Source: a virus (lineage: Duplodnaviria; Heunggongvirae; Uroviricota; Caudoviricetes). From it: a stretch of 26,225 nt of DNA. This document shows positions 19,727 through 25,916 of this stretch, one piece after another. The stretch's first letter is position 1. Each line of letters opens with the position of its first letter. The translations under genes and the position numbers were made by a program. Under the pieces are notes generated by a model, which was not told where the DNA came from, searched no databases, and was given only the letters and a program-made list of their open reading frames with translations. The stretch lies in IMG/VR virus record IMGVR_UViG_638341087_000002; one strand, 5' to 3'.

Positions 19727-19951
19727 TCAACACACTGGCTGTAATGCAGCGGATACCATGCGGCATTTAGCGGCATTCATCGTACACTCCACGGTTAGCT
19801 CTTCATTCGTGGCATTCACCCGAAAGGTCCGGGAGTGTAATTGCGTACATTTACCACTGAACGAACCTTCAACAAGAACACGACCACGCTGCAAAATACG
19901 GAACGGAATTGTTCCCTGAAAAGGCTTTACGGTTACCAGTAATTTCTTCAT
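19727..19951 (-). CDS. Hypothetical 74-aa protein between Rz and cos
   Basis: ATG at 19949-19951 preceded by GGAG SD; MKKLLVTVKPFQGTIPFRILQRGRVLVEGSFSGKCTQLHSRTFRVNATNEELTVECTMNAAKCRMVSAALQPVC; not recognisable as bor or any family I know. Confidence 0.45.
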   Translation of the reverse strand: MKKLLVTVKPFQGTIPFRILQRGRVLVEGSFSGKCTQLHSRTFRVNATNEELTVECTMNAAKCRMVSAALQPVC

Positions 19952-19974
19952 GCATTCTCCGGATAACAAAAATA

Positions 19975-20442
19975 CTAGTTAATACACTGAGTGCGGATAT
20001 ATTCCTGCGCCCCTTCCAGCTGCTTCTGCATCATCATCAACCGTTCTCTGAGGATGAAATAATCCCGTTCAGCGGTGTCTGCCAGTCGGGGGCCGGTTGC
20101 ATTATCCACGCCGGAGGTGCCGGTGGCTTCACGCACGGTACCGTGGCAGGTGGCGTTGATCCGCAGGCGCTTACGACCAGCGGCAACATCAGCACGCAGA
20201 GTTTCATTTTCAGCTCTCGCATCGGCTAATTCCTTCGAGTATTTTGCATCGAGCGCAGCAACATCACGCTGACGCACCTGCATGTCAGTAATGGTGGCAT
20301 TCGCCTGTTCCAGCTCTCTGGCTTTTTTATCGCGCTGCGCTTTGTAGGTGATGGCGTTATCGCGGTAATGATTAACAGCCCATAACAGACAGACGATGAT
20401 GCAGATAACCAGAGCGTAAATAATCGCGGTTACTCTTCTCAC
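19975..20442 (-). CDS. Rz: Spanin, inner-membrane subunit Rz (i-spanin)
   Basis: Strong similarity to lambda Rz ([38 protein letters not shown]...[15 protein letters not shown]). Start set at the GTG at 20440-20442, which overlaps the endolysin stop codon (GTGA); the track's TTG at 20460 is an alternative. Confidence 0.85.
20037..20222 (-). CDS. Rz1: Spanin, outer-membrane lipoprotein subunit Rz1 (o-spanin), embedded in Rz in the +1 frame
   Basis: 61-aa [64 protein letters not shown] with lipobox LVVSAC and a proline-rich mature part; close match to lambda Rz1. Confidence 0.85.
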
Positions 20443-20972
20443 TGATCTATCCCCCAACAAGCTAATGCGCTTTCCTGGTCACGACGAATAACCTGTCCGT
20501 AGCAGTTATTTGAACGTGTGCGGCAATCACGCCCACCGTCCTTAATCCACCAGCGAATCGCCTCACACGCCCCCCTGCGATCGCCTGCATTAATTCGTTT
20601 ATAAAACGTCGACGGGAAACACTTACCTGGGCCAATGTTGTAAGGACAGAATGACGCAATACCCGCTTTCTGGGGTTCAGTCAGTGGCACTTTGATGTTT
20701 TTCTCCACCCATGCCAGCGCCTTATCACGCTCAATGGCGTTAACCTGGTCGCATTTCCCCTTCGACAGCTTCATGCCAGGAATAACAGGCTTACCATCCA
20801 CCCGGGTGGCTCCACGGCAGATGGTCCAGATACCCGCACCATCACGGTATGCCGTGGTGTGGTTGCCTTCCTTTTCATCCAGAAACTGGTCGAGGATTTC
20901 AGGCGCAGAAGCACCTGCGGCAATCAGCGCCAGAACGGCAGCCGATAAACCATAGCGGAGTTTCCTGCTCAT
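20439..20972 (-). CDS. R: SAR endolysin (T4-lysozyme family, glycoside hydrolase family 24) with N-terminal signal-anchor-release domain
   Basis: 177 aa; weakly hydrophobic Gly/Ala-rich N-terminus ([17 protein letters not shown]) followed by an E-x8-D-x5-T catalytic triad ([16 protein letters not shown]), as in the phage 21 and 933W endolysins. Confidence 0.85.
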
Positions 20973-20976
20973 CAGC

Positions 20977-21192
20977 TTACTCTCCCCGTGCCGCCTTACG
21001 CCTGTCCTCTCTGATTTTGAAATACAGGTTCGTCAGGTACGTCAGCAGACCAAACAGCAGACTCCCCAGCACGCCTATTGCCGCCCACTGAGACGGGGAA
21101 ACCCTGTCCAGCAACTGCAGGAACCAGTAGCCCGTTCCCACCGCTGACGTGGTGTATGACACACCTGTTGTGATTTTTTCCATCTGGTACAT
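20977..21192 (-). CDS. S: Class II holin (pinholin, S21-like) with dual start motif
   Basis: 71 aa [71 protein letters not shown]; essentially the S21/933W holin as I remember it; Met1 and Met4 suggest antiholin/holin dual starts; GGGAG SD upstream. Confidence 0.9.
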
Positions 21193-21268
21193 ACCCCGTC
21201 TCCCGCAATCCGGAAGCTCACAACATGAAAAAGGCCAGCAGCTGTTTACTGATGGCCCTGACTCCCCG

Positions 21269-21541
21269 TTACAGCATCATGACCGATTCGGGTTGAGGTT
21301 CAGTCGCATCGGCGACCGGTGATTCAGGCTGAACTTCACCGCTCTCTGCGGTGGTATCTCCCGCTTCAGTCGGTGGCTCTGCCTGTACACCAAGCAGCTC
21401 ATCCAGAATGGCATCAACCTCTGCATCAAGACGCGCTTCCAGGTTATGGCGAAGTTTTTGTTTCAGTGCACTCAGGACTTCTTCAGAGCGCAGGACTTCC
21501 TTCACTGCCTCAGCAGTGACCAGGGATGTAATTTCTGACAT
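21269..21541 (-). CDS. Hypothetical acidic 90-aa protein
   Basis: Internal ATG at 21539-21541 of the 148-aa track ORF chosen because the upstream part overlaps another plausible ORF; [51 protein letters not shown]... helical N-terminus, Glu/Pro-rich acidic tail. Weak SD. Confidence 0.45.
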
Positions 21542-21581: not shown

Positions 21582-21761
21582 CTAAATGAGCGGCTCTTCG
21601 GGTTTGCTTCCGGCTGACTGACTGGCGCTGATTTTCTCAGCGGCCCTTTTGTCAATCTGTCTGCGCCAGACGTCACGCATGGCCCTGTACCCACCCGAAA
21701 GGAGATACAGCACACAGACCACCGTACAGAAGTACAGCATTAACTGGTTCAGAAATGTCAT
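21582..21761 (-). CDS. Hypothetical 59-aa single-TM membrane protein
   Basis: ATG at 21759-21761 preceded by GGAAAG; MTFLNQLMLYFCTVVCVLYLLSGGYRAMRDVWRRQIDKRAAEKISASQSAGSKPEEPLI (hydrophobic N-terminal segment then basic region). Below the 60-aa cut-off of the supplied track. Confidence 0.4.
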   Translation of the reverse strand: MTFLNQLMLYFCTVVCVLYLLSGGYRAMRDVWRRQIDKRAAEKISASQSAGSKPEEPLI

Positions 21762-24157: not shown

Positions 24158-24325
24158 TCAAGCATTATGCAGGCTGTTTCTTTTTATCACCGGCCACAGC
24201 AATACCATAATGCCGCAGACCAGCACCCCATCCGCCAGCACCGACATGATTCTGCTGGTGAAATCCACCATCACCACCAGAAACAGCAGGAGTGCAGCCA
24301 CAGCCAGGCGCAGTTTTACCGTCAC
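24158..24325 (-). CDS. Hypothetical 55-aa two-TM small membrane protein, start codon overlapping the TerB-like stop
   Basis: GTG at 24323-24325 overlaps the TerB-like stop (GTGA) with GGAG 8 nt upstream; VTVKLRLAVAALLLFLVVMVDFTSRIMSVLADGVLVCGIMVLLWPVIKRNSLHNA has two hydrophobic segments. Not in the supplied track in this frame. Confidence 0.3.
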   Translation of the reverse strand: MTVKLRLAVAALLLFLVVMVDFTSRIMSVLADGVLVCGIMVLLWPVIKRNSLHNA

Positions 24326-24753
24326 AGGTGATTCTCCAGACGAAGACCCAGAACACCGGCAATCTCTTCCAGCACCTTGCGCTCTTCCGGCTCAATTTCG
24401 CCGTCTGCCTCCGCAATGGCCACCGCCACATCCAGCACATCTTCCGCTTCACGCGTATCGTGTTTCACATCCTCAATCTCGCGTAACGCGGCACGACGAC
24501 CAATTTTAAAATTGGTATCCAGCTGACCGATAATAGTTGCGCTAATCGCATTAATTTCCGAGGTAAACGCAGACAACGCAGGCTGATTACGTAAGACCTG
24601 TTCGATCTTCGCTTTCTCGGATGCCTCGCATTCACCATCTGCATAGGCCACCAGGTATGCAGCGTTAATCACCGCCTGTGCCAGATCGCGTTTCTCAAAC
24701 TTTTTAATTTCCGCTGCCGCTCTGCGGGTTTTCTTTTTGAAGATTCCAAACAT
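24322..24753 (-). CDS. TerB-like domain protein (tellurite-resistance TerB family fold), 143 aa
   Basis: ATG at 24751-24753 with AGGAA SD (track ORF starts at an upstream GTG). Two repeats of the TerB-type motif: AYADGECEASEKAKIEQVL and AEADGEIEPEERKVLEEIAGVLGL. Confidence 0.55.
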   Translation of the reverse strand: MFGIFKKKTRRAAAEIKKFEKRDLAQAVINAAYLVAYADGECEASEKAKIEQVLRNQPALSAFTSEINAISATIIGQLDTNFKIGRRAALREIEDVKHDTREAEDVLDVAVAIAEADGEIEPEERKVLEEIAGVLGLRLENHL

Positions 24754-24884
24754 CGTGACGTTCCTTTGGGTGGGTGAGCCAACGCCCGGGAGCGATCTGC
24801 CCACAGAGAAAGTCACACTGACCACTCCGTAAGCTCACCCCCGAAAGGCTCTGTGGTTGATATGCGCCGGGCGTGGCGCAGATA

Positions 24885-24922: not shown

Positions 24923-24999
24923 TGGCGCGTTGTAGTGGAGTCGAACCACTGACCGATTGCTTAGAAGGCAATTGCTCTGTCCGACTGAGCTAACAACGC
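24923..24999 (-). tRNA. argN: tRNA-Arg (anticodon UCU, reads AGA/AGG)
   Basis: Hand-folded cloverleaf: acceptor GCGTTGT/ACAACGC, D-arm GCTC..GAGC, anticodon stem ATTGC/GCAAT with loop CTTCTAA, T-arm AGTGG-TTCGACT-CCACT, discriminator G, encoded CCA. Confidence 0.8.
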
Positions 25000-25012
25000 A
25001 TGATGCTGATAA

Positions 25013-25089
25013 TGGACCGCCATCGGGGACTTGAACCCCGCGCAGCCAGCTTCGAAGGCTGGCGCTCTGTCCCGATGAGCTAATGGCGG
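25013..25089 (-). tRNA. argO: tRNA-Arg (anticodon UCG, reads CGA/CGG); atypical C1:G72 and U73
   Basis: Hand-folded cloverleaf: acceptor CCGCCAT/ATGGCGG, D-arm GCTC..GAGC, anticodon stem CCAGC/GCTGG with loop CTTCGAA, T-arm CGGGG-TTCAAGT-CCCCG, encoded CCA. Gene symbol assigned by position only. Confidence 0.65.
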
Positions 25090-25098
25090 TATGTGATA

Positions 25099-25174
25099 TG
25101 GTGGCCCTTGCTGGATTTGAACCAGCGACCTGGCGATTATGAGTCGCTCGCTCTCACCACTGAGCTAAAGGGCC
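25099..25174 (-). tRNA. ileZ: tRNA-Ile2 (anticodon CAU, lysidine-type, reads AUA)
   Basis: 76 nt GGCCCTTTAGCTCAGTGGTGAGAGCGAGCGACTCATAATCGCCAGGTCGCTGGTTCAAATCCAGCAAGGGCCACCA; near-identical to E. coli ileX/ileY as remembered; anticodon loop CTCATAA. Confidence 0.85.
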
Positions 25175-25202: not shown

Positions 25203-25916
25203 TCAATAATCAAGCCCTTGCCTGGATACATATCTGTCTGGCGGGAAGCCATAATAGCGGTGAAATACAGAAATAAAGTAGGACCTGCTTGAATAACCGC
25301 ATTTTTCTGCTATAGCCTGTCCATATCCATGCCGGGAACATAACATATTTACAGCAACACGCATCCGCTCTTCCAGCAACAAGCGACTGAACATGCCCCC
25401 TTCATTTTTCAGTTTTGTCTTTAACAAACTCTCACTCATATGCAACTGTAGAGCAATCGCACCAAGCGTCCAGCTTGCTGATATATCTGTCTGAATTATC
25501 GCCCTGACTTTGGCACTTATGCTGGATAAACATCCACTTAAAAACAATGACATCCGTTCATCTGTTTCAAACAGAGACAGGCAGGCCATCATAAGAAACA
25601 TATCCGTGGCCTCTCCGGAAAATCCCTGGCTGGTAATTAAAGCCGCAGCCAACGCAGGATTGTTGGGTTCCAGCAACAGGTAAAGCGGAATGTCAGTCAG
25701 ACGAGTCCTCGTCAGCTTATGCTGACTTTCCAGATATTGACTTACGACGGATTCGCTTATATCGACAATTTTAACTTTGCCATAATGCATAAGGAAAAGC
25801 TCCCTGATGCATTTGGTGGCCAGAACGACTGAGCCTGGCTTAAGTGACAACGTATCCTTTTCAAGAAAAATATTAATTGGGGAGCAAACCATGATAACTG
25901 AACAGACAACAGCCAT
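25203..25916 (-). CDS. AraC/XylS-family transcriptional regulator (prophage cargo gene)
   Basis: 237-aa ORF with C-terminal AraC-type double HTH (WTLGAIALQLHMSESLLKTKLKNEGGMFSRLL.EERMRVAVNMLCSRHGYGQAIAEKCGYSSRSYFISVFHRYYGFPPDRY). Start uncertain (Met1 at 25916 or Met9 at 25892; neither has a strong SD). Confidence 0.8.
   Translation of the reverse strand: MAVVCSVIMVCSPINIFLEKDTLSLKPGSVVLATKCIRELFLMHYGKVKIVDISESVVSQYLESQHKLTRTRLTDIPLYLLLEPNNPALAAALITSQGFSGEATDMFLMMACLSLFETDERMSLFLSGCLSSISAKVRAIIQTDISASWTLGAIALQLHMSESLLKTKLKNEGGMFSRLLLEERMRVAVNMLCSRHGYGQAIAEKCGYSSRSYFISVFHRYYGFPPDRYVSRQGLDY

Follow-up and report, generated by a model that had tools for sequence, protein, structure and literature searches.

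In a 26,225-nucleotide stretch of viral DNA (IMG/VR record IMGVR_UViG_638341087_000002, Caudoviricetes; below, the window), the lysis genes at positions 19975-21192 include a pinholin gene, S, with two in-frame start codons, whose longer product carries an N-terminal extension with Tyr-Gln in place of the basic residue found in most of its family. We found that the absence of the basic residue is real and clade-wide, being shared by the S genes of Shiga toxin (Stx)-type phages. As far as can be judged from the sequence, the complete dual-start module of the phage 21 type (two ATG codons, the first Shine-Dalgarno sequence, SD1, locked in a hairpin, and an open second one, SD2) has been kept, and only the charged residue is gone. 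The cassette and the exact holin N-terminus are already known, having been public since the 933W genome, and the missing residue refines what is already a well-understood system and is no surprise. What is added here to the initial annotation, made from the window alone, is the identity of the cassette with that of 933W and other Stx phages, the clade-wide distribution of the non-basic extension together with its recurrence elsewhere, and the existence of natural single-start alleles.

In phage 21, pinholin molecules build up in the inner membrane with both transmembrane domains (TMDs) inserted, and the weakly hydrophobic TMD1 must exit before TMD2 can oligomerise to form small pinholes. Pinholes of the S21 type, about 2 nm in size, depolarise the membrane and do not pass the endolysin; depolarisation releases and activates the Sec-exported, membrane-tethered signal-anchor-release (SAR) endolysin R, and finally the outer membrane is disrupted by Rz-Rz1. 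According to secondary sources, the extra basic residue (Lys) of the long form, S21-71, impedes TMD1 exit, and S21-71 keeps the short form, S21-68, in inactive dimers until triggering (PMC13056207; bioRxiv 10.1101/2024.01.23.576932; PMC9636201). Similarly, a SAR domain becomes locked in the bilayer when its cytoplasmic end is given additional basic residues (PMC9239132). The accepted explanation of dual-start antiholins thus rests on the extra basic residue, and it is this residue that has been replaced in the S21-family pinholin clade of greatest medical relevance. Within the searchable literature, which did not extend to the primary S21 papers, nothing was found on the missing residue or on an Stx-phage antiholin or dual start.

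The features of the cassette are listed below in the order of transcription.

21200..21216, minus strand: leader hairpin CUUCCG-GAUUG-CGGGAG, the 3' arm of which holds the first Shine-Dalgarno sequence, GGAG (21203..21200)
21194..21197, minus strand: second G-rich Shine-Dalgarno-like element, GGGG, outside the hairpin and 10 nt upstream of Met4
20977..21192, minus strand: holin gene S, long open reading frame (ORF) of 71 codons and a stop, MYQMEK start; Pfam PF04971, E = 9e-33
21181..21183, minus strand: second in-frame start, Met4, giving a 68-aa form MEKITTG...
20439..20972, minus strand: endolysin R, a GH24 'true lysozyme' of 177 aa; PF00959, E = 3e-24; triad E35/D44/T50
20895..20951, minus strand: putative SAR domain of R, approximately residues 8-26, by hydropathy and composition, preceded by the basic residues R3, K4 and R6
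19975..20442, minus strand: i-spanin Rz, GTG start, 155 aa; PF03245, E = 1.3e-50, profile positions 1-125 of 126
20037..20222, minus strand: o-spanin Rz1, 61 aa; PF06085, E = 6.4e-22; lipobox VSAC followed by Gly; Pro-rich

The N-terminal extension across the pinholin family

The long forms of antiholins of the S107/S21-71 type begin at the first of two in-frame starts, which are separated by one or two codons, and add Lys or Arg. In S, both starts are present, at codon 1 (21192-21190) and codon 4 (21183-21181), as had been noted from the MYQMEK terminus; the region reads ATG TAC CAG ATG, and the long form adds Tyr-Gln.

To place this extension in the family, we considered 65 loci obtained by an alignment-based scan of genome contigs from a one-genome-per-species collection. 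A basic residue, Lys or Arg, is present in the extension at 59 of the 65 loci (MKSM, n = 20; MYRM/MHRM, n = 25; MLRM, n = 6; MRM, n = 7; MKM, n = 1). The statement that the long form of the window departs from the usual pattern is thus borne out by the family norm. Arg3 is encoded by both CGA and CGC, a sign of purifying selection on this residue. The loci without a basic extension are those of the Stx type (MYQM, MDQM), one from Escherichia albertii with ATA in place of the first ATG (ATG1), and one from Symbiopectobacterium (MQLDK).

Within the Stx-type clade, the cluster representatives start with MYQ, MDQ, MNQ, MHQ or MFQ. The same picture was seen in viral contigs. An earlier scan of these with a protein query had returned only copies 97-100% identical, useless for covariation; a scan anchored only downstream of Met4 yielded 137 Stx-type sites, comprising MYQ (n = 99), MDQ (n = 14), MNQ (n = 9) and ATA CAT CAG ATG (n = 15). 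Thus, approximately 11% of the sampled Stx-type genes (in L270 and 14 other viral contigs) have ATA instead of ATG1; they do so on a different leader, which still folds into a hairpin containing the Shine-Dalgarno sequence. These genes are natural single-start alleles, able to yield the 68-aa form only. At the one ATA locus where the downstream gene was examined, that of E. albertii (L085, 1501-1512), an intact SAR endolysin gene of the R21 type follows.

Outside the close Stx-type copies, extensions of the form M-x-Q-M occur in lineages that are only 76-89% identical. Divergent holin genes of Cronobacter, Franconibacter and Citrobacter specify M-[Y/F]-Q-M, their Gln codon being CAA or CAG, and one of them has GTG as its first start. 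Given the close relation of the Stx-type S genes to those of the MYRM type, the simplest reading is a change from Arg3 (CGA/CGG) to Gln (CAA/CAG) that probably took place more than once. All four bases are found at the first position of codon 2, and diversifying selection at residue 2 was therefore considered; it is unsupported, as this residue (Y/L/H) varies in the MxRM clade too.

Several loci of the survey need a separate remark. One MDQM-type holin gene (L129, 1501-1683; E. coli ECMA0423) is a disrupted copy: its product departs from the others beyond residue 54 and stops early, and no endolysin ORF follows it. Eight further loci (L084, L086, L089, L093, L106, L111, L131 and L145) lie on contigs labelled as Xanthomonas, Bacillota, Nanosynbacter, Veillonella, Segatella, Geobacteraceae or Alkalicoccobacillus. 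As they match E. coli prophage sequence exactly or almost exactly, contamination or mis-binning is the most likely explanation, and these labels probably do not denote true hosts.

Probable dual-start control and possible roles of the long form

The pinholin itself fits its family well. The PF04971 match ('Bacteriophage P21 holin S') spans profile positions 1-63 of 64, and PHROG holin families match as well. In an alignment with 17 family members (alignment A1), S is 75-97% identical to the others, and both M1 and M4 are invariant. Two TMDs are predicted: TMD1, following a very short cytoplasmic tail, is weak (mean Kyte-Doolittle hydropathy 0.71, slightly above the 0.52 of P21) and consists of Gly, Ala, Ser and Thr by 50%, and TMD2 (mean hydropathy 1.55) has a face of small residues, with G40, G43 and S44 invariant in the same alignment and G48 nearly so. 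The assignment to S21-type pinholins made in the initial annotation, which did not state that the gene lies on the minus strand, thus holds by the Pfam score, the other family models, and the near-identity to the 933W protein.

The leader contains the elements that would be expected for control of two starts. The first Shine-Dalgarno sequence is 7 nt from ATG1 (aligned spacing 5), and the second Shine-Dalgarno-like site, CGGGGUA, has an aligned spacing of 8 in a crude ribosome-binding site (RBS) model. A centroid fold of the leader (-8.4 kcal/mol) gives the hairpin, which sequesters SD1, its role in setting the ratio of the products being putative. Per-sequence folds give an equivalent hairpin, with the Shine-Dalgarno sequence as the 3' arm, in nearly every family member; RNAalifold of 25 unique leaders yields six pairs, four of which show compensatory double changes, and in near-identical Stx-type copies the stem is kept, while the loop differs (GAUUG, GAUAA, AGUA, UUGCG). 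The simplified RBS model suggests that both ATGs are usable, with the short form favoured approximately 5:1 (long:short about 0.18).

Phage 21 S21, to which the window holin is about 80% identical, shares with it the Pfam family, the two TMDs with a weakly hydrophobic TMD1, G40/S44/G48 in TMD2, the starts at codons 1 and 4, the leader hairpin sequestering the Shine-Dalgarno sequence, and a SAR endolysin partner with an E-D-T triad. However, the S21 extension is Lys-Ser, whereas that of the window is Tyr-Gln, leaving the long form without an extra basic residue. The partners also differ, the window endolysin being of the RrrQ/933W type (177 aa, 8 Cys) and that of phage 21 of the R21/RrrD type (165 aa). 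With lambda S107/S105 the window shares the logic of one gene, two starts and a stem-loop upstream that controls the ratio between them. The lambda S protein is an unrelated canonical holin (class I) with three TMDs, forming large holes, whereas the window holin is of the S21 type (class II), and in lambda the extra charge blocks insertion of TMD1 rather than its exit (PMC6116005).

We consider it somewhat more likely than not that both products of S are made, the short form likely predominating, that the 71-aa MYQ form has weak or null antiholin activity, and that lysis would be timed chiefly by how strongly TMD1 is intrinsically retained in each S molecule, together with the expression level. 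Both products are probably made because all elements of the dual-start control module known from the S21 family are kept, and the long form would be at most a weak antiholin because in phage 21 it is the basic residue that slows TMD1 exit. Whereas the gene identities, the architecture, the conserved hairpin and ATGs, the clade-wide loss of the basic residue and the occurrence of single-start alleles are observed, we infer that both starts are used, in what proportion, and that the long form inhibits only weakly. That the long form is dispensable is supported by the ATA alleles.

Several observations weigh against this explanation. ATG1 and its 9-nt spacing are invariant in all 122 sampled standard-leader Stx-type genes, and M-x-Q-M persists in the 76-89% identical lineages, which hints that the long form is under selection and may retain a function. 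Considered as a single sequence, the hairpin is not significant (z = -0.59), and the case for it leans on the comparative evidence. The RBS model is crude, its long:short ratio ranging from 0.09 to 11 among close relatives, and can be used only qualitatively. In addition, the extra charge of lambda S107 comes partly from the deformylated N-terminal amino group, not from Lys2 (PMC6116005), and lengthening of the short cytoplasmic tail may by itself slow TMD1 exit (PMC13056207).

The last two points also bear on the possibility that the 71-aa form is still an effective antiholin independently of a basic side chain, owing to its longer polar tail or to differing N-terminal processing. The polar tail that may have to pass through the bilayer along with TMD1 would be six residues long rather than three, and the three-residue tail of S21-68 has been called critical for TMD1 exit (PMC13056207); as to processing, the deformylated amino terminus is one of the two extra charges of lambda S107 (PMC6116005). 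Furthermore, Gln3 is kept along with ATG1 and the spacing in all sampled standard-leader Stx-type genes, and in the divergent Cronobacter, Franconibacter and Citrobacter genes, and the hairpin limiting initiation at ATG1 is also kept, which would make sense only if the amount of the long form matters. On the other hand, residue 2 varies freely (Y/D/N/H/F), an acidic allele included, single-start ATA alleles occur beside an intact cassette, and the rest of the family retains the basic residue with synonymous codon changes, so that it is apparently the charge that selection normally keeps. A difference in deformylation would also be unexpected, because both pinholin forms begin with the N-terminus in the cytoplasm. 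On balance, an effective MYQ antiholin is the leading alternative, though an unlikely one.

A less likely alternative still is that only one start, most probably Met4, is used to any real extent, ATG1 being a relic that persists because the sequences are young or the bases of the RBS region are constrained. The sequestration of SD1 with SD2 open, and the low long:short ratio of the crude model, agree with this; the natural ATA alleles show that Met4 alone suffices, and as most Stx-type copies are 97-100% identical, conservation of ATG1 among them weighs little. Nevertheless, SD1 is ideally spaced from ATG1, phage 21 with the same architecture yields both products according to secondary sources (PMC9636201; bioRxiv 10.1101/2024.01.23.576932), and the divergent M-x-Q-M lineages retain the first start, once as GTG. 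Finally, the antiholin role could have moved to a separate gene, as separate antiholin genes exist in T4, P1 and P2 (PMC6116005). A candidate would be the small single-TMD protein DUF1378 (21582..21761, minus strand), encoded between nanS-p and S: DUF1378 and DUF826 directly precede S in the window as well as in 933W-like genomes and the Citrobacter loci with non-basic extensions. However, the Cronobacter and Franconibacter non-basic loci lack the DUF1378/DUF826 genes, and nothing connects DUF1378 with lysis, making this option very improbable.

The choice between a weak MYQ antiholin, which we prefer, and an active one matters beyond this cassette. Should the long form still act as an inhibitor, the retention of SAR-like TMDs would not be a matter of charge alone. 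If it does not, the pinholin clock of Stx phages would run with little or no antiholin buffering, and N-terminal alleles could shift the timing of lysis and toxin release. One may even speculate, although this is rather unlikely, that the Stx-phage dual start no longer makes a charge-based inhibitor, and that Y2, D2, N2, H2 and the loss of ATG1 are lysis-timing alleles tuning burst and Shiga toxin release among lineages of E. coli that produce Shiga toxin (STEC); the long isoform could then be neutral or, in the MDQ allele, promote TMD1 exit.

The endolysin, the spanins and cassette architecture

The four genes are adjacent or overlapping, occupy 19975-21192 and are all on the minus strand; the family E-values exclude chance as the source of their predicted identities. 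The endolysin gene starts 4 bases past the TAA stop of the holin. Its own stop, TGA, overlaps the GTG start of Rz by 4 nt (GTGA) at the junction ...GATCAGTGAGAAGA, which reads GAT CAG TGA in one frame and GTG AGA AGA in the other, as had been described; the same 4-nt R/Rz overlap is annotated in phage ASU11. Rz1 (20222..20037) lies entirely within Rz (20442..19975) at a computed frame offset of +1, again in agreement with the initial annotation. With an i-spanin of a known family and a lipoprotein gene wholly inside it in another frame, the pair has both properties of a lambda-type embedded two-component spanin, and the lambda embedded-spanin family includes Rz/Rz1 of the type found in the window (PMC6139136).

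The muralytic domain of R belongs to GH24, and its triad, E35-8-D44-5-T50, aligns with those of R21 (PDB 3HDE) and RrrD (4ZPU); R matches these two structures and 7M5I. The N-terminus, MSRKLRY, is followed by a weakly hydrophobic segment (best 19-aa window, mean Kyte-Doolittle hydropathy 1.78; 53% Gly/Ala/Ser/Thr), and so fits the published description of SAR domains, in which an N-terminal TMD of mainly weakly hydrophobic residues comes after two or three basic residues (PMC9239132). The N-terminal motif, including the Pro after ASA, is conserved beside S21-family holins in many genera. The initial annotation of a SAR domain is thus supported by hydropathy and composition, as well as by the near-identical R of 933W, which has served experimentally as a SAR endolysin: the Young laboratory listed and used a construct under the name '933W SAR endolysin' (PMC9239132).

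The initial annotation also regarded pinholin and endolysin as a functionally matched pair, and this agrees with the survey. At genome loci with a readable downstream ORF, an S21-family holin usually precedes a SAR-type endolysin, mostly with a 1- or 4-nt overlap, and such holins are conserved beside SAR-type endolysins across genera; the endolysins next to them are of three types, R21, RrrQ/933W and P1-Lyz.

The N-terminus of R might instead be an ordinary cleavable Sec signal peptide, R being secreted, as its n-region is basic, its h-region has 13 residues, and the AxA motifs AGA|S and ASA|P are present. However, a Pro at position +1 blocks signal peptidase I, and the Pro after the ASA motif is the residue conserved across genera. 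The high content of small residues, the treatment of the 933W protein as a SAR endolysin and the pairing of R-type genes with pinholins in the surveyed loci argue in the same direction. Hence, a cleavable signal on R is unlikely, with only a very small probability left to it, and its identification as a SAR endolysin, which would be exported in a membrane-tethered form and released on depolarisation, is supported.

Relationship to 933W and the neighbouring genes

The 1.4-kb cassette is 99.7% identical at the DNA level to that of an Stx2a-converting phage, and 463 phage records match it; the S region recurs with 100% identity in chromosomes of O121, O55:H7 and O157:H7, in which RefSeq labels the product 'class II holin family protein' and annotates it from ATG1. 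Compared with 933W, S has 70 of 71 residues the same (K61R), the MYQMEK start included, and an identical 45-nt leader; R is identical at 171 of 177 residues, with residues 1-71, and hence the whole SAR domain, unchanged, and Rz1 at 60 of 61. From these similarities, the cassette is assigned to the 933W/Stx-phage type, in the late operon of a lambdoid prophage, the closest known systems being 933W and the S-R-Rz/Rz1 genes of the VT2-Sakai and H-19B type. Stx-phage cassettes have earlier been described as pinholin, SAR endolysin and Rz/Rz1 (PMC8136144; PMC10462455; spanin census, PMC6139136). The cassette itself therefore adds nothing new, being the module by which phage, and toxin in the case of Stx phages, is released from STEC.

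The upstream neighbours are also the same as in 933W, namely, three tRNA genes, nanS-p, DUF1378 and DUF826. However, where 933W has stx2AB, between the tRNA cluster and nanS-p, a TerB-family gene is found in the window. The window, the late region of a lambdoid prophage of the Stx-phage type, therefore stems from a non-Stx prophage. The R/Rz junction differs too: in 933W and the O121 genome, an antirepressor gene, ant, and a small ORF lie between R and Rz (L295, 2462-3463; L296, 5584-6578), whereas in the window R and Rz overlap directly, as in lambda, and the N-terminus of Rz is lambda-like, unlike that of the 933W and O121 proteins. In other relatives (L302, L303), a YdfR/DUF1327 gene is found between S and R.

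Directly downstream of Rz, on the same strand, is an ORF of 74 aa (MKKLLVTVKPFQG...; 19727-19951, minus strand), which has no match in Pfam; in its place 933W has bor on the opposite strand. Upstream of the holin, DUF1378 (59 aa, one hydrophobic segment; 21582-21761, minus strand) and DUF826 (21269-21541, minus strand) hold a fixed place, also in two Citrobacter loci (L298, L302). Between the DUF826 stop and the S leader there is a GC-rich hairpin with one mismatch (21233-21257, minus strand; GGCCAUCAG...CUGCUGGCC), followed by UUUUU (T-run 21228-21232), which looks like an intrinsic terminator within a Q-antiterminated late operon. It was seen by eye, and the consensus terminator scan made no call there; an Rfam scan of 19900-21400 at E<=1 gave no match. 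Related loci have other stem sequences at this place.

Farther upstream, the first tRNA gene is called Met (CAT) by ARAGORN and tRNA-Ile (ileZ) in the 933W and RefSeq annotation, and an AraC-type helix-turn-helix gene lies upstream of the tRNAs, in the region with 24322-24825, 24923-25174 and 25203-25916, all on the minus strand.

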